From a virus: a DNA stretch of 60,032 bases. Location of the stretch: the UHGV virus genome UHGV-0168673; one strand, 5' to 3'. The notes below the pieces were generated by a model that was given only the letters and a program-made list of their open reading frames with translations, did not search any database and was not told the origin of the DNA. Shown here one piece after another: positions 722 to 46,557 of this stretch (positions are counted from its first letter, which is position 1; the number at the start of each line of letters is the position of its first letter). Both the position numbers and the translations under genes were made by a program.

Positions 722-2986
722 TCATAATTTACAGGATGAACAATCTTCAGCTTTTGGAGTTTCTATTTCATAATCATCAGTACCAGAACCATCGCGGGTA
801 TTATGATAATAGAAATTTTTTCCGCCAAAATACCAAAAATACAAAAGGTCATCAATCATTATTGACATTGGAACCTTGCCTTTAGGGAAGATTTGGGGGT
901 CATAGTATGTATTCGCCGAAGCTGATTGACAAACCCATTTCAGCATAATAGCTACCTGTGTAAGATAAGGTTTATTACCTTTCTTAGCTAATTTCCACGT
1001 ATAATCATAGAGGTCTATGTTATGCTCAATATTGGGCACGACTTGATTAAAGGAACCCTCTTTTGATTCTTTAACAGAGACTGGTCCACGTGGAGGCTCG
1101 ATACCGTTTGTACTGTTAGAAACTTGGGAAGATGACTCACATGGCATAAGTGCTGATAATGTGCTATTACGGATGCCAAAGAGCTTAAGGTCTTCCCGCA
1201 GCGACGACCAGTCACAAACGTATTTTGGAGCTGCGATTTGGTCAATCTTTTTATTGTACCAGTCGATAGGTAATTCGCCTCGAGACCAACGAGTGTCTGA
1301 ATAATATTCGCAAGGTCCTTTTTCTTTGGCGAGCTTGATGGATGCTTTAATGAGTCCATACTGCAATCTCTCAAATAGTTCATGTGTTAAATCGTTAGCG
1401 TCTTCATAAGAAGCAAAATTACTTGCCAGCCAAGCTGCATAGTTAGTAACACCTACGCCAAGGTTTCGACGCTTTTTAGCTTTTTCTGCTTCAGGAACTG
1501 GATATCCTTGGTAATCCAAAAGATTATCAAGAGCACGAACTTGGACTTCTGCTAATTCATTAATTTTATCTTGGTCTTGCCAATCGAAGTTATCTAACAC
1601 AAATGCAGATAACGTGCACAATCCAATTTCAGCATCAGGACTATTCACATCATTTGTTGGAATAGCAATTTCACAGCACAAGTTACTCTGACGAATAGGT
1701 GCCTTTTCACGAATAAACGGAGTATAGTTATTCGTATTATCAATGAACTGTACATAAATCCTTGCTGTTCCTGAGCGTTCAGTCATGAGCAATTCAAATA
1801 GTTCACGGGCTTTAATACGCTTTTTACGAATATTAGGGTCTTTTTCTGCTGCTTCGTATAATTCACGGAAACGGTCTTGGTCTTTAAAATAAGAATAATA
1901 AAGCTCGCCACCCATTTCATGCGGACTGAACAAAGTAATGTAATCGTTCTTTCCGAATCGTTCCATCATCAAATCATTCAGCTGAACACCATAATCCATA
2001 TGACGAATGCGGTTTTCTTCTACGCCTTTGTTATTTTTCAAAACGAGAAGATTTTCAACTTCCAAATGCCAAATAGGATAATAAGCAGTAGCAGCGCCGC
2101 CACGAATTCCACCCTGTGAACATGATTTAACTGCAGTCTGAAAATGTTTCCAAAAAGGAATAACACCAGTATGGCGTACTTCACCCATGCCAATCTTAGA
2201 ACCTTCGGCACGAATCATACCAACGTTAATACCAATTCCAGCGCGTTTAGAGATATATTCAACAATTGAAGCGGAAGCCTTATTGATAGACTTTAATGAA
2301 TCACCTGCCTCAATAACAACGCATGAACTAAACTGTCGAGTCGGAGTACGACAACCAGCCATAATAGGAGTTGGCAATGAAATCTGTCGAGTAGATACCG
2401 CTTCATAAAAACGGATAACATGTTTTAATCTATCAACAGGTTCATCTTGATGCAGTGCCATTCCAATAGTCATAAATGCAAACTGTGGAGTTTCATAAAT
2501 TTGACCAGTGGTTTTATCTTTAACTAAATATTTTTCTTTTAATTGCATCGCCCCGGAATAAGTAAATTCCATATCCCGCTCGTGCTTAATTTTTGATTCT
2601 AAAAATGTAATTTCTTCTGCTGAATATTTTGACAATAATTCAGGGTCATATTTACCTGCATTTACACAATAAGAAATATGGTCAATAAATGAACGTGGTT
2701 CATACTGCCCATAAACATGCTTACGAAGAGCGAACATTAAACAGCGAGCGGCTACATATTGGTAATCAGGCTCTTCAACTGAAATAGAATTTGCAGCAGC
2801 CTTAATGACAATAGTCTGAATATCATCAGTTGTCATTCCATCACGGAGATAAGATTTAATATTTTCATATAATTCATAAGGATCTACTGATGTTCCCTCA
2901 GCTGCCCAAGATAAAACTTTAATAATTTTTTGTGGGTCAAAGCTCTGAGAAACACCACTACTTTTGATAACATTAATTAATTGCAT
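722..2986 (-). CDS. nrdA: Aerobic ribonucleotide reductase large subunit NrdA
   Basis: 754-aa ORF, same length as T4 NrdA; N-terminus [21 protein letters not shown] and catalytic-region motifs as recalled for T4. Confidence 0.95.
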   Translation of the reverse strand: MQLINVIKSSGVSQSFDPQKIIKVLSWAAEGTSVDPYELYENIKSYLRDGMTTDDIQTIVIKAAANSISVEEPDYQYVAARCLMFALRKHVYGQYEPRSFIDHISYCVNAGKYDPELLSKYSAEEITFLESKIKHERDMEFTYSGAMQLKEKYLVKDKTTGQIYETPQFAFMTIGMALHQDEPVDRLKHVIRFYEAVSTRQISLPTPIMAGCRTPTRQFSSCVVIEAGDSLKSINKASASIVEYISKRAGIGINVGMIRAEGSKIGMGEVRHTGVIPFWKHFQTAVKSCSQGGIRGGAATAYYPIWHLEVENLLVLKNNKGVEENRIRHMDYGVQLNDLMMERFGKNDYITLFSPHEMGGELYYSYFKDQDRFRELYEAAEKDPNIRKKRIKARELFELLMTERSGTARIYVQFIDNTNNYTPFIREKAPIRQSNLCCEIAIPTNDVNSPDAEIGLCTLSAFVLDNFDWQDQDKINELAEVQVRALDNLLDYQGYPVPEAEKAKKRRNLGVGVTNYAAWLASNFASYEDANDLTHELFERLQYGLIKASIKLAKEKGPCEYYSDTRWSRGELPIDWYNKKIDQIAAPKYVCDWSSLREDLKLFGIRNSTLSALMPCESSSQVSNSTNGIEPPRGPVSVKESKEGSFNQVVPNIEHNIDLYDYTWKLAKKGNKPYLTQVAIMLKWVCQSASANTYYDPQIFPKGKVPMSIMIDDLLYFWYFGGKNFYYHNTRDGSGTDDYEIETPKAEDCSSCKL

Positions 2987-16342: not shown

Positions 16343-19300
16343 ATGGCTACTTTAAAACAAATACAATTTAAAAGAAGCAAAACTGCAGGTCAACGTCCTG
16401 CTGCTTCAGTATTAGCCGAAGGTGAATTGGCTATAAACTTAAAAGACCGTACTCTTTTTACTAAAGATGACTCGGGAAATATTATTGATTTAAGCATTAC
16501 CGCTGGCGGTAATATTAGTGGAAATATCACTCAAACTGGCGATTATACACAGACTGGAAAATTTAATTTAATTGGTCCGCAAATTGTAGCAAGCGGTGGA
16601 TATATTGAGTTTAATTATCGTACTACTGGAAGTGGGGCTTGGTCTGGTCAACACACTGCAAAAGCTCCAATTTTTGTAGATTTAAGCTCAGCTACTTCCA
16701 CATCTGAATATAATCCTATAATTAAACAGCGCTTTAAAGATGGAACTTTTTCATTAGGTACTTTAGTTTCTGAAGGTTCGTTGAAGATTCATTATATCAA
16801 TGAATCTGGCGATTCGAAATATTGGACGTTTCGACGTGACGGCGGATTTGTTGTTGACGGTGGAGGTTTAGCAGTATCAGGAGGTAGTATAACTACATCT
16901 GGAAATATTGCAGCTCTCGGAAATATTACTTCGCCTCAGATTAATACTAAAAATATTATTTTAGATACAAAAGCATTTGGACAATACGATTCGCAATCAT
17001 TAGTTCAATATGTTTATCCTGGAACAGGTGAAGAAAATGGTATAAACTATCTTCGTAAAGTTCGAGCTAAATCAGGCGGAACCATTTACCATGAAATCGC
17101 TTCAGCTCAAACCGGTAAAAATGATGAAATTTCTTGGTGGACCGGAAATACACTTACTACTAAATTAATGGGTCTTCGTAATGATGGCGCAATGGTATTA
17201 CGTCGTTCACTTGCTATTGGCACAATTACCACTGACGAAAATACTAACAACTATGGTTCTCCTACTCCAATGGGAGAAAGATATATTGCTTTGGGCGATG
17301 CTGCCACTGGTTTAAAATACATTAAGCAGGGTGTTTATGATTTAGTAGGTAATTGGAATTCTGTTGCTTCTATTACTCCTGATAGTTTCCGTAGTACTCG
17401 TAAAGCGTTATTTGGACGTTCAGAAGACCAAGGCGGAACCTGGACAATGCCTGGAACGAACGCTGCCTTTTTATCAGTTCAAACACAGGCTGATGAAAAC
17501 ACTGCTGGAGACGGCCAGACGCATATTGGCTATAACTCAGGCGGAAAAATGAACCACTATTTCCGTGGTAAAGGCAAAACTAATATTAATACTCAGGAAG
17601 GTATGGAAGTTAATCCGGGTATTTTGAAATTGGTAACTGGCTCTAATAATGTAATGTTTTATGCTGATGGCGGTATTACATCTGTTAAGCAGCTTTCAAT
17701 ATATAATGGCATATATTTAGCAGCTAATAATTCTACTGCTGGGCTAACATTCGCTCCAACTACTACAATTGATGGCACTAAGCAAATTTTGTGGGAAGGC
17801 GGTACTCGTGCTGGTCAGAATAAAAGCTATGTAACTGTTAAAGCATGGGGTAATTCATTTAATGCATCTGGCGATCGTGCTCGTGAAACAGTTTTTGAAG
17901 TATCAGATGGACAAGGATATTATTTTTATTCACAGCGTGTGGCTCCAAGTGGCTCTGAAACTACTGGGCCTGTTGTAACCCAGTTCAATGGACAAGTTAA
18001 TGCTAGAGGAAGTATTATTACTGACGGAAGTTTTAAAGTTAATGGATTAAGCACTTTAGTCGGTAATGTTACCATGTCTAATGGTTTGTTTGTCCAAGGT
18101 GGTTCTTCTATTACTGGACAAGTTAAAATTGGCGGAACAGCTGATGCATTAAGAATTTGGAATGCTGAATACGGGGCTATTTTCCGTCGTTCTGAAGATA
18201 AGCTTTATATTATTCCAACTCCACAGAATGCTGGTGAATCAGGTGGTATTTCTAATTTACGTCCGTTCTATATTACATTAAGTAATGGTAAAGTTTCCAT
18301 GGATCATGATGTAGATATCGGTGGAGGTAGATTTAAAGTAGAAGTGGCTGGAACTACTGCTAATCAACGCATAACAGTAAATATGGCATCAGATGCTATT
18401 AGAATAAATGCTCCAACACAAGAGTCTTCTAACTTCATTCAAGGACGTAAAGCAGATGTTCCGAAATGGTATTTAGGTATTGGCGATGGCGGAAACGTCG
18501 TTCGTATGCATAGTTACACCCATTCACATGGTATTGCATTAAACTCTGATACTGTCGATATTACTAAGCCTCTTAAAGTCGGAAATGCCCAACTAGGAAC
18601 TGACGGTAATATTACCGGTGGTTCAGGAAACTTTGCTAATTTAAACAGTACAATTGAATCATTAAAAACCGATATTGTTTCAAGTTATCCTATTGGAGCT
18701 CCTATTCCATGGCCAACGGATACTCCTCCTGACGGTTACGCTATTATGGAAGGCCAGACTTTTGATAAGTCTGCATACCCAAAATTGGCTATGGCTTACC
18801 CATCTGGCGTAATTCCAGATATGCGCGGGCAAACTATTAAAGGTAAACCAAGTGGTCGAGCTGTATTAAGCGCAGAAGCCGATGGTGTTAAGGCTCATAG
18901 CCATAGTGCATCGGCTTCAAGTACTGACTTGGGTACTAAAACTACATCAAGCTTTGATTATGGTACTAAAACATCTTCAAGCTTTGATTATGGTACTAAG
19001 ACTAGTAACACCACAGGAAACCATAATCATACAGTGAGTGGTAATACTAGTTCCGCCGGTGCGCACCAACACAACGAAGGGACGTATTTTTCATCGTACG
19101 GATACTTTATGAACGGATACAATATTCGCCAGTCATCGGGAGCTGCCATCGAAACATCCAATAGACAAGGCATAGCGTTTTATGGTAAAACCTCTAGTGC
19201 TGATGCCCACACTCATAGTTGGTCAGGAACCACGAGTACTACAGGTAACCATGCTCATACTGTAGGTATAGGTGCTCATACCCATACTGTAGGTATCGGT

Positions 19301-19450: not shown

Positions 19451-19999
19451 AAAATATATCATTATTATTTTGACACTAAAGAATTTTACAAAGAAGAAAA
19501 TTACAAACCGGTTAAAGGCCTCGGTCTTCCTGCTCATTCAACAATTAAAAAACCTTTAGAACCTAAAGAAGGATATGCAGTTGTATTTGATGAACGTACT
19601 CAGGATTGGATTTATGAAGAAGACCATCGCGGAAAACGAGCATGGACTTTTAATAAAGAAGAAATTTTTATAAGTGAAATTGGAAGCCCGGTTGGTATAA
19701 CTTTTGATGAGCCTGGCGAATTTGATATATGGACTGATGACGGTTGGAAAGAAGACGAAACATATAAGCAAGTTTTAATTCGTAATAGAAAAATTGAAGA
19801 ATTATATAAAGAGTTCCAAGTTTTAAATAATATGATTGAAGCTTCTGTCGCAAATAAAAAGGAAAAATTTTATTATAAAAACCTTAAGCGGTTCTTTGCT
19901 CTTTTAGAAAAGCATGAGCATTTAGGTGGTGAATTCCCTTCATGGCCTGAAAAAGAACGGAAACCTTGGTATAAGCGTTTATTCAAGCATTACGTATAA
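19448..19999 (+). CDS. 38: gp38, long tail fibre assembly chaperone (T4-type, not the T2-type adhesin)
   Basis: 183-aa ORF, same length as T4 gp38; MKIYHYYFDTKEFYKEENYKPVKGLGLPA.. Confidence 0.9.
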   Translation: MKIYHYYFDTKEFYKEENYKPVKGLGLPAHSTIKKPLEPKEGYAVVFDERTQDWIYEEDHRGKRAWTFNKEEIFISEIGSPVGITFDEPGEFDIWTDDGWKEDETYKQVLIRNRKIEELYKEFQVLNNMIEASVANKKEKFYYKNLKRFFALLEKHEHLGGEFPSWPEKERKPWYKRLFKHYV

Positions 20000-44377: not shown

Positions 44378-44551
44378 TCAGTCTTCAATGAAAACTTGTG
44401 CCAGGAATTCGTGTTCATCTTGAATTTGTTTATATAAAGCCATTACAGCATTTATATTAGAGCTATCTACTTTAAGTTGATAAGCATACCACTCGTGTAA
44501 ATTAATTAAAGCTTTTTGACGTCTAATAAATTCTTCTTTGGATATTTTCAT
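44375..44551 (-). CDS. Small hypothetical protein (58 aa), not in ORF track
   Basis: MKISKEEFIRRQKALINLHEWYAYQLKVDSSNINAVMALYKQIQDEHEFLAQVFIED; ATG overlaps upstream stop; would overlap the soc late promoter, so uncertain. Confidence 0.35.
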
Positions 44552-44742
44552 TTTGAATGCTCTATAATTAATTTTAAAGCTTCTTCACTGACAAAAATTT
44601 CGTCAGGACCTTCTATAACTTCAACCATACGAAGTTGATTAGTTAAGAGCTCACATACGAGCTCCTTGTTATAATCTTTAAATAGCTGGTCAATGCGTTT
44701 CTTATGGGCTTTCTTGAGCTGACGCTTATTTAAACGAGCCAT
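44548..44742 (-). CDS. Hypothetical basic protein
   Basis: 64-aa track ORF; ATG overlaps gene 56 stop by 1 nt. Confidence 0.5.
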   Translation of the reverse strand: MARLNKRQLKKAHKKRIDQLFKDYNKELVCELLTNQLRMVEVIEGPDEIFVSEEALKLIIEHSK

Positions 44743-45260
44743 TAATAACCTCGGTCTTGACGAGCGAAGTTTTCAGCATTTTTCAGGTAATAAAGTTTAA
44801 AGATTTCTTCAGCTGACATTCCAAGAGCAATAAATTTATTCATGAAAAAGTGAAATTGGTCAATCAGTTCAAATTTAATTTCAAGCTGATCTTCAGGAGA
44901 TAAATCTTGAATTTTCTTGGATTGCATTTCAGAATAACGTTTCTTCCAAGGTTTCCATACAGCAGAAGCTTCTTTTTCACCATTACTCATACCACCAAGA
45001 GAAGTATATAGCTCGCGAGTTTCATCTGCGATATAATCGTCTTGGTTTCGCAACCAAGCAAGAACTTCTCCTGCAGTTTCAAGTGAATCAGGATGACGAT
45101 TTGTTTCTGGTTTATCATTAGCCAAACGAATCTGTAAATGCCGCTGCATGTCAAGCATAACCTGCAGTGGGTCAATATTGTGCATAATATTCTCAGCATA
45201 TGCACGATTTGCTTTATCAACACCTTTGATCAAATGAGCACATTCATTAAAGTGAGCCAT
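44742..45260 (-). CDS. 56: dCTPase / dCTP pyrophosphatase gp56
   Basis: Track ORF starts at GTG 45353; from ATG 45260: MAHFNECAHLIKGVDKA..LQVMLDMQRHLQIRLAN..KEASAVWK..EIFKLYYLKNAENFARQDRGY matches T4 gp56. Confidence 0.9.
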   Translation of the reverse strand: MAHFNECAHLIKGVDKANRAYAENIMHNIDPLQVMLDMQRHLQIRLANDKPETNRHPDSLETAGEVLAWLRNQDDYIADETRELYTSLGGMSNGEKEASAVWKPWKKRYSEMQSKKIQDLSPEDQLEIKFELIDQFHFFMNKFIALGMSAEEIFKLYYLKNAENFARQDRGY

Positions 45261-45331
45261 TATTTTTCCTTTCAATTCATGGGTTAGTAGATTAATTATA
45301 CAATAAATATATAAAGCAATAAGGAGGACAT

Positions 45332-45532
45332 ATGGTACAAAAATTAATGGCACTTGTTAATGCCATAAAAGGTAATAAAAAACGTATAGCTTTTACTATT
45401 TCTGCTATGGTAGGAATTTTACTCTGGAACTTTATTCTATCACCTGTTGCAATTGCACATGGTATTAATATTCCAGTAGTTACTCTTGATACATTTGTAG
45501 ATTTAGCATTTGCTTTAGTTGGGTTAATTTAA
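45332..45532 (+). CDS. Small predicted membrane protein (66 aa) on the opposite strand
   Basis: Strong SD AAGGAGGA 5 nt before ATG; two hydrophobic segments; stop overlaps the gene 61 stop (convergent). Confidence 0.5.
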   Translation: MVQKLMALVNAIKGNKKRIAFTISAMVGILLWNFILSPVAIAHGINIPVVTLDTFVDLAFALVGLI

Positions 45533-46557
45533 ATCTTAGCATATTTAGATAACCGCATTTTAGCCATCAACCCCTGGGCAATATTATTTTTCATATATTC
45601 CATAATTTGTTCAGGGGTTGCACCTTCCTTTCTAATCATATCATTAACATCTTTTGATTTCCAGGGAGATTTATCCCAAAACATAACCCTTTCTCCTGCA
45701 TCAACTAATTTAGTCATTCGCTTAATAGTGTCAGGATGACGAGGTTCATTATCTAAAACCCACACACGTCTATCTTTAAATGGAACAACTTCTAGGTCTA
45801 ATTGACCACCCGTAATAGCTATACCATTTTCAATAAAAAGTGAATCTATAGGTCCTTCTAGAACATATACATCACCATCTTTAACTCGTTCAACACCGTA
45901 AATTTTTGTTGCCTCAGGATAAGCTTTAATGGTGATATATTTTTGAGGAGCATCTTTCTTTAATGCACGTCCTTGAAAAGACTCAGCTTTTCCATTAGCA
46001 TTATAAATTGGAATAACAAGACGAGGCTCAGAAATTTCCTTTTTGTATGTTCCCGGTGCTATGCTATTAACTAATTTAGGCCATTCAGTTGTAAACCAAA
46101 GATATTTCCATTTATCCTTTGGAATACAACGAGCTTTTACATATTTTATAATTGCATGGTCTTCCGCCAGTTTATCTAATCGAACACATGACGGAAGAGA
46201 TTTAATTATTTTCTTCTCAGGTTGTTTAGGAAGTTCTTTAGGTTTTTCTACTGGACGACTTTTACCTTTTTCTTTTCTTATTTCAAAGATATACTCACGA
46301 TATAAATCAGGTTCAAACTCCTTTAAATATATTCCGATTGGTGCATGATAGTTACAGTTATAACAATGAATATTTCCTTCATTATTATCACCATAATACC
46401 ATCCACGAGCTTTATTCTGATCGGTTTTTGAATCTCCACAAACAGGGCATCTAAACCGCAATTTAAAAGTTGAACTATTATTTACTTGTGCGAATTTAGG
46501 TAAATGAGCCAATGCACGATACGCAAACTCATTATCAATCCAAGGTATTGATGACAT
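45529..46557 (-). CDS. 61: DNA primase gp61
   Basis: 342-aa ORF MSSIPWIDNEFAYRALAHLPKF..CPVCGDS..CYNC (zinc ribbon) matches T4 gp61. Confidence 0.95.
   Translation of the reverse strand: MSSIPWIDNEFAYRALAHLPKFAQVNNSSTFKLRFRCPVCGDSKTDQNKARGWYYGDNNEGNIHCYNCNYHAPIGIYLKEFEPDLYREYIFEIRKEKGKSRPVEKPKELPKQPEKKIIKSLPSCVRLDKLAEDHAIIKYVKARCIPKDKWKYLWFTTEWPKLVNSIAPGTYKKEISEPRLVIPIYNANGKAESFQGRALKKDAPQKYITIKAYPEATKIYGVERVKDGDVYVLEGPIDSLFIENGIAITGGQLDLEVVPFKDRRVWVLDNEPRHPDTIKRMTKLVDAGERVMFWDKSPWKSKDVNDMIRKEGATPEQIMEYMKNNIAQGLMAKMRLSKYAKI

Follow-up and report, generated by a model that had tools for sequence, protein, structure and literature searches.

The junction between genes 56 and 61 in the phage DNA analysed here (the whole 60,032-nucleotide stretch, referred to below as the window) represents, with a probability that we place at about 0.8, the T6-type, dam-less allele of a variable cargo slot located between gene 56 and dam.1, and the small plus-strand open reading frame (ORF) found at this junction is the conserved gene dam.1. 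Both dam.1 and the dam-less layout are already known and have been deposited many times, T6 included, and the finding is an ordinary one, with a modest annotation point. The identity of the gene is well supported; what we propose for its function is held with low confidence.

Organization of the 56-dam.1-61 locus

We found that the window belongs to a Tequatrovirus, whose closest relative is Shigella phage SHBML-50-1 (99.3% identity over 44742-46557); 332 phage records cover at least 80% of this segment. The locus is composed of gene 56, dam.1 and gene 61 (Table 1). The start of gene 56, a gene annotated in relatives as dCTP pyrophosphatase, was aligned with that of T4 gp56 (MAHFNECAHL), and the intergenic space between gene 56 and dam.1 measures 68 bp. 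A 203-aa, GTG-started form of gene 56 reaching to 45353, which appears in the mechanical ORF list, is an artefact; it would overlap dam.1. The plus-strand ORF of 66 codons with a strong Shine-Dalgarno sequence is present exactly as originally predicted, and so is its tail-to-tail contact with gene 61. The two genes are convergent, and the dam.1 stop TAA (45530-45532, +) and the gene 61 stop (complement of 45529-45531) have TTAA in common, which gives a 4-nt overlap when the stops are counted. The ORF had also been described as an opposite-strand gene in an otherwise minus-strand early region; in agreement with this, all but one of the approximately 155 annotated genes in the first 76.6 kb of SHBML-50-1 (1..76600; L023, L024) are on the minus strand, the exception being the dam.1 CDS.

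Table 1. Features of the 56-dam.1-61 locus in window coordinates
Feature	Position	Strand	Details
Gene 56 (dCTPase/dUTPase)	44742..45263	-	True ATG at 45263; PHROG 173, E 1.4e-44
40-bp segment opposite the 919-bp dam cassette of T4 (T4 L001 3807-4725)	45281..45320	.	Flanked on either side by sequence homologous to T4
Putative MotA-dependent middle promoter of gene 56	45295..45319	-	TTGCTTTA (45319 to 45312), 11-nt spacer, TATAAT (45300 to 45295)
Late-promoter-like box AATAAATA, A(-13) variant of TATAAATA	45302..45309	+	Ends 22 nt before the dam.1 ATG
Shine-Dalgarno sequence of dam.1, AAGGAGGA	45321-45328	+	3 nt before the ATG
dam.1, gene of a predicted 66-aa small inner-membrane protein	45332..45532	+	PHROG 2024, E 1.4e-31; named Dam.1 in T4T and T6
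Terminator-like hairpin, ATGGCATTAACAAGTGCCAT then TAATTTTTGT	45347..45366	-	Antisense in dam.1 codons 6-12; consensus scan
Gene 61 (DNA primase)	45529..46557	-	PHROG 47, E 1.8e-105; 342 aa, near-identical to T4 gp61

T4 dam does lie between genes 56 and 61, as originally stated (16846-17625 in NC_000866), and dam is indeed missing from the locus studied here, which holds genes 56, dam.1 and 61 only. With T4 Dam as a tblastn query, no Dam homologue was detected in the 60-kb window (best E 4.9) or in the whole SHBML-50-1 genome (best E 1.0). In turn, the 309-bp unannotated gap between dam and 61 in NC_000866 contains the same 66-codon plus-strand ORF, while T4 Dam itself, which occupies the neighbouring slot on the other strand, is unrelated to the 66-aa product. 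T4 and T4T possess the 919-bp dam cassette between 56 and dam.1 and otherwise show no material difference from the window. In a global alignment of window positions 45201-45400 with T4, 68 of 70 positions are identical up to 45280 and 71 of 73 from 45328, and between these points the shared AAGGAGG is all that can be aligned. The exchange of 40 bp for 919 bp is a plain replacement; apart from the ATAAATA and Shine-Dalgarno region, which both phages have, the alignment shows no repeats at its flanks. Gain or loss of dam by recombination between repeated promoter cassettes was considered; it is neither supported nor excluded.

T4-type Dam (at least 90% identity) is encoded in 182 phage records, compared to 503 records for dam.1 at the same identity, which makes the dam-less layout the commoner state. 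This layout is common to T6, whose 56-dam.1-61 order is identical to that of the window, and to about two thirds of Tequatrovirus records, while dam is present next to dam.1 in T4, T2 and about one third of them. The dam-less junction is therefore a common deposited polymorphism and says nothing new about dam. What the locus does illustrate is a variable cargo slot between two fixed genes, accommodating dam, MazG-like or other ORFs. The slot upstream of dam.1 is empty in the window and in T6, occupied by dam in T4 and T2, and filled in CHD2BS1 by dam together with a 186-aa hypothetical ORF (L022 841..1401, -); Klebsiella phage PhiKpNIH-6, Citrobacter phage Moon and Enterobacter phage IME523 carry other minus-strand ORFs there. 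On the other side of dam.1, a homing-endonuclease gene (L004 2872..3621, -) lies between dam.1 and gene 61 in DK-13. A 94-aa MazG-like ORF adjoins gene 56 in CC31 (L027 6821..7105, -), IME523 and Moon.

The tetranucleotide GATC occurs 65 times in the window, against about 194 occurrences expected from base composition. A link between this depletion and the missing dam was considered and rejected: the dam-positive T4 is equally depleted (14 sites against 36 +/- 5 expected in the 10-kb stretch L001), so depletion is unrelated to dam carriage. Further along the locus, two small minus-strand ORFs (44378..44551 and 44548..44742; 57 and 64 aa; PHROGs 9053 and 5782) separate soc from gene 56. T4 has the homing-endonuclease gene segF at this site; the arrangement in the window is that of T6 and SHBML-50-1.

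Distribution and diversity of dam.1

The 66-aa product matches PHROG 2024 with its residues 2-66 on profile positions 1-65 of 65. Its T4 counterpart (L001 4739..4939, equivalent to NC_000866 17738..17938) is likewise 66 aa in length, differs at 2 of 66 residues (97% identity) and retains the same stop overlap. This T4 ORF between dam and 61 is left without annotation in NC_000866, but it is named dam.1 in T4T (T4Tp032, ADJ39749.1), and the T6 record also uses the name Dam.1 (AXN58073.1), with a later start codon chosen (186 nt). The Dam.1 proteins of T4T and T6 are 97-98.5% identical to that of the window, and their genes share its length, strand, TTAA overlap, ATAAATA core and Shine-Dalgarno sequence. 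The JS98 RefSeq entry (L028 6344..6544) and the IME523 record (L033, approximately 1501..1710) leave the ORF unannotated, as does the T4 RefSeq entry. One practical consequence is that transcriptome, proteome and knockout studies based on NC_000866 miss dam.1.

Using tblastn, we detected dam.1 in 693 phage records, always beside the primase gene. At least nine genera of T4-like phages, of which eight are placed in Tevenvirinae, encode homologues at the same position and on the same strand; besides Tequatrovirus, these include Mosigvirus (RB69ORF029w), Gaprivervirus, Dhakavirus (JS98), Marfavirus, Kanagawavirus (IME523), Jiaodavirus and Moonvirus. The homologues comprise 63-73 codons, lie on the same strand as in the window and are placed tail-to-tail with gene 61. 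Convergent abutment with gene 61 was seen in T4, T6, RB69, JS98, PhiKpNIH-6 and Moon, and in KPV15 the two genes lie without overlap. RB69ORF029w and the type B and C proteins (JS98, PhiKpNIH-6, IME523, KPV15 and Moon) show 20-55% identity to the window protein and resemble it in position, orientation and size (63-73 aa), as well as in a basic N-terminus, one membrane helix and a W-N...P...G...P motif; a late-promoter-like box precedes all of their genes but that of Moon, which has ATTAAATA only. They differ from it in the C-terminal helix, which bears an acidic DxxxD in the window protein and contains E/H in types B and C. Even the JS98-type proteins, which share no more than about 20% identity with the window protein, match the family profile (hmmsearch E 3.7e-9; hhalign probability 95.5%, E 1.5e-8). 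Five residues, W32, N33, P38, G44 and P48, are invariant across all subtypes, and all are present in the window protein.

VR25/VR26-like Gapriverviruses carry two intact tandem paralogues (2495..2692 and 2701..2901 in L013 and L014), the first of the dam.1 type and the second of the JS98 type. In DK-13, TH40 and a third Gaprivervirus (L004, L005 and L017, approximately 2701..2900), the second copy has decayed into a pseudogene, carrying frameshifts and deletions as well as a stop at codon 2. The repeated decay of this copy suggests that the two paralogue types are functionally redundant. In Enterobacter phage CC31, no dam.1 copy was found between genes 56 and 61; thus, at least one lineage can do without the gene at this site.

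Transcription signals around dam.1

The late-promoter motif upstream of the ORF, previously taken as only a near match, turned out to be better than that. The box AATAAATA is the commonest accepted variant of the T4 late promoter: 32 of 50 listed T4 late sites have a perfect TATAAATA and 9 of 50 carry A at -13, as is the case here (Geiduschek and Kassavetis, PMC2988020). Of 11 independent upstream contexts, 10 contain an ATAAATA core at a distance of 12-22 nt from the ATG; these cover 8 of 9 genera, and the core is kept despite differing neighbour genes and unalignable flanks. The Marfavirus and Kanagawavirus copies have the canonical TATAAATA. The canonical T at -13 is found in no Tequatro-, Mosig-, Gapriver- or Dhakavirus lineage, and T4 itself has G at this position. 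As a caveat, ORF029w has no late promoter listed before it in the published HMM scan of RB69. Across the window, ATAAATA is depleted, with 14 sites against 35 +/- 6 expected and at least 14 in every shuffle. Five of the 14 sites are positioned 14-34 nt upstream of an ATG-started ORF on the same strand; apart from that of dam.1, they precede ORFs of 1289, 221 and 218 aa and the soc ORF, and the genes concerned are read as late genes 34, 36, t and soc besides dam.1.

The orientation of the gene points in the same direction as the box. T4 early and middle transcripts all run counterclockwise, late transcripts run in either direction, and the two strands of this phage are known to be transcribed at different times (PMC2988020). 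As dam.1 is oriented clockwise, against the direction of all early genes within the first 76.6 kb of SHBML-50-1, it should be readable late only. Judging from these sequence features, we commit to the reading that dam.1 would be a late, gp55-dependent gene, and we regard this predicted timing as well supported. Transcription would be carried out by gp55-RNA polymerase with gp33 and the gp45 clamp, and a start from the AATAAATA box would yield a leader of roughly 15 nt carrying the strong Shine-Dalgarno sequence, the GGAGG/GGAG core of which is kept before the dam.1 ATG in all lineages compared.

MotA boxes follow the consensus (a/t)(a/t)TGCTT(t/c)A and lie about 12 bp upstream of a sigma-70 -10 element. 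Such an arrangement is found on the minus strand of the window between dam.1 and gene 56 (Table 1), and the combination of a MotA box and a -10 element is seen also in the intergenic regions of Mosig-, Gapriver- and Dhakaviruses. T4 record X01416 has a mot-box promoter, P(M)16.53, annotated just upstream of gene 56/69, and the homologous spacer of RB69 contains the predicted middle promoter Pm:16038 (-), with a score of 21.6 (Nolan et al., 2006). According to the oriA note of the T4 record, the middle promoter at this locus makes the oriA primer. The late box AATAAATA sits within the spacer of the opposite-strand gene 56 promoter, so that one 25-bp stretch would drive leftward transcription in the middle period and rightward transcription late. 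If true, such sharing of late and middle promoter DNA would make the locus a compact temporal switch.

About 165 nt separate the gene 61 stop from the terminator-like hairpin that lies downstream of it on the minus strand. Folding energies in Tequatroviruses, T4 included, range from -8.9 to -13.2 kcal/mol, and the hairpin was present in all those examined; in Mosig- and Gapriverviruses it is not conserved. The putative hairpin could stop early transcripts leaving gene 61. In turn, a scan of the window detected no plus-strand terminator after dam.1, and late dam.1 transcripts therefore probably run on antisense into gene 61.

Coding status, predicted product and possible roles of Dam.1

Pairwise comparison of 13 distinct Tequatrovirus alleles yielded dN/dS values of 0.09-0.25. 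Comparisons across species and genera gave saturated synonymous sites (pS 0.6-0.86), with pN at 0.15-0.39 and dN/dS at 0.05-0.39. These substitution patterns show dam.1 to be protein-coding and under purifying selection.

That the product is a membrane protein, as originally predicted, is supported by hydropathy and charge analysis and by the AlphaFold2 model. The product has a GRAVY of 1.25, basic residues only at positions 4, 13, 16, 17 and 18, and Asp53 and Asp57 as its only acidic residues. The model (24-sequence alignment, mean pLDDT 77) contains an N-terminal, basic, amphipathic helix (2-14), a long helix (16-42) and a short, acidic-hydrophobic one (52-63), with the conserved HG..P loop between. 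Two hydrophobic segments had been claimed, of which the first, at about 19-42, fits a membrane span; the C-terminal stretch does not, being modelled as a 12-residue helix with Asp53 and Asp57. For RB69ORF029w, a single membrane span was predicted at 21-41 (Nolan et al.). The product is thus predicted to be a small single-span inner-membrane protein. Since all five basic residues fall at positions 4-18, the N-terminus would be cytoplasmic, followed by one span at approximately 19-42 and a short C-terminal helix at the periplasmic face. In such a topology, the invariant W32, N33, P38, G44 and P48 would be placed in the outer half of the membrane helix and in the loop that follows.

Several other readings of the ORF have to be weighed against a conserved, translated dam.1. 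The original prediction saw in it a lineage-specific membrane factor occupying the place of dam in this phage, as dam is absent and the ORF is the sole gene in the 56-61 interval. However, the gene is not lineage-specific, with 693 phage records and nine or more T4-like genera containing it; T4 has dam and the same ORF side by side, and what differs from T4 is the 40-bp spacer upstream, not the ORF. The T4, T4T and T6 records already refute this reading, and we give it next to no weight. It is also very improbable that the ORF is untranslated and the region conserved because it supplies promoter DNA or else the terminator and 3' untranslated tail of the primase mRNA. Such a reading would accommodate the minus-strand hairpin inside the ORF and the omission of the ORF from the T4 RefSeq, JS98 RefSeq and IME523 annotations. 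It would also fit that our literature search found no expression data for dam.1. The search turned up nothing relevant for dam.1, RB69ORF029w or T4Tp032, and no T4 transcript, start-site-mapping or ribosome-profiling study that includes the gene; the 56-61 locus is not discussed in Petrov 2010 or Arbiol 2010. Yet, the hairpin is limited to Tequatroviruses, which led us to reject it as the reason for conservation, while the ORF length, the Shine-Dalgarno sequence and the five invariant residues persist at 20-55% identity; dN/dS is well below 1 with synonymous sites saturated, and no antisense ORF is maintained. A main role at the RNA level, in which late clockwise antisense transcription through gene 61 and beyond helps to shut off primase and early genes and the peptide is secondary, seems somewhat less remote, but still improbable. 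In most genera, dam.1 and gene 61 still abut stop to stop, the lack of a detected plus-strand terminator downstream in the window and the documented transcription of the two T4 strands at different times (PMC2988020) fit this role, and the annotation of Moon places a plus-strand terminator no earlier than the far end of gene 61. Against this, the purifying selection on amino acids and the invariant residues are left unexplained, the homing-endonuclease gene of DK-13 separates dam.1 from 61, and the KPV15 genes do not overlap. RNA-level and protein roles could coexist.

A holin or pinholin-like lysis protein is suggested by the small size, the hydrophobicity and the probable lateness of Dam.1, by one UniRef member named 'Holin' and by one Klebsiella phage record labelled 'putative holin'. 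Class II holins and pinholins (e.g., S68 of phage 21) are small (approximately 65-70 aa), hydrophobic, late membrane proteins, and Dam.1 resembles them only in size, hydrophobicity and probable lateness, the likeness being one to class descriptions and not to holin sequences. We consider this role unlikely. No Pfam or NCBIfam holin family was matched; the protein lacks a charged hydrophilic C-terminal tail, has no basic residue after position 18 and ends in ...AFALVGLI; one full-length membrane span is predicted; and the neighbours are dCTPase and primase genes, not lysis genes. Moreover, the phage already has a T holin, encoded by the 218-aa ORF behind TATAAATA at 19996, about 25 kb away, which is annotated as holin. 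That T4 t-null mutants fail to lyse also speaks against a second holin.

What Dam.1 does instead can be proposed only tentatively. It may serve an envelope process late in infection, for instance exclusion, lysis timing or lysis inhibition, through its conserved periplasm-proximal motif. On the periplasmic side of the inner membrane, it would then bind a partner rather than form a hole. To our knowledge, T4 lysis genetics has not pointed to the 56-61 locus. It is equally speculative that dam.1 encodes an overlooked late inner-membrane protein with a real envelope-biology phenotype (lysis timing, lysis inhibition, superinfection exclusion or host-range-dependent fitness), with a late promoter sharing DNA with the middle promoter of the oriA primer. 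Annotating and deleting dam.1 would be a cheap route to one more function in the best-studied phage.

The 66-aa product has no match in Pfam (E<=10), NCBIfam (E<=1) or PDB sequences (E<=1); Foldseek gave no structural match in PDB (E<=0.001) and no informative match in BFVD. Among 1.84 billion representatives searched with phmmer, the credible matches are Mosig- and Gapriver-type relatives only; three long repeat proteins also retrieved (P0032, P0036 and P0037) are spurious, their scores being summed over repeats. A word-indexed search with the profile returned 75 proteins, all of the same family and all unnamed but for the one 'Holin' label, and a scan of IMG/VR produced 10 loci, which added little. 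A 63-aa protein of Enterobacter phage vB_EclM_CIP9 (BFVD A0A6B9Y0M4) shows a weak resemblance to Dam.1 in both structure and sequence (33% identity over 51 columns, E 0.22), and may be a further diverged member of the family in a Karamvirus-like phage.
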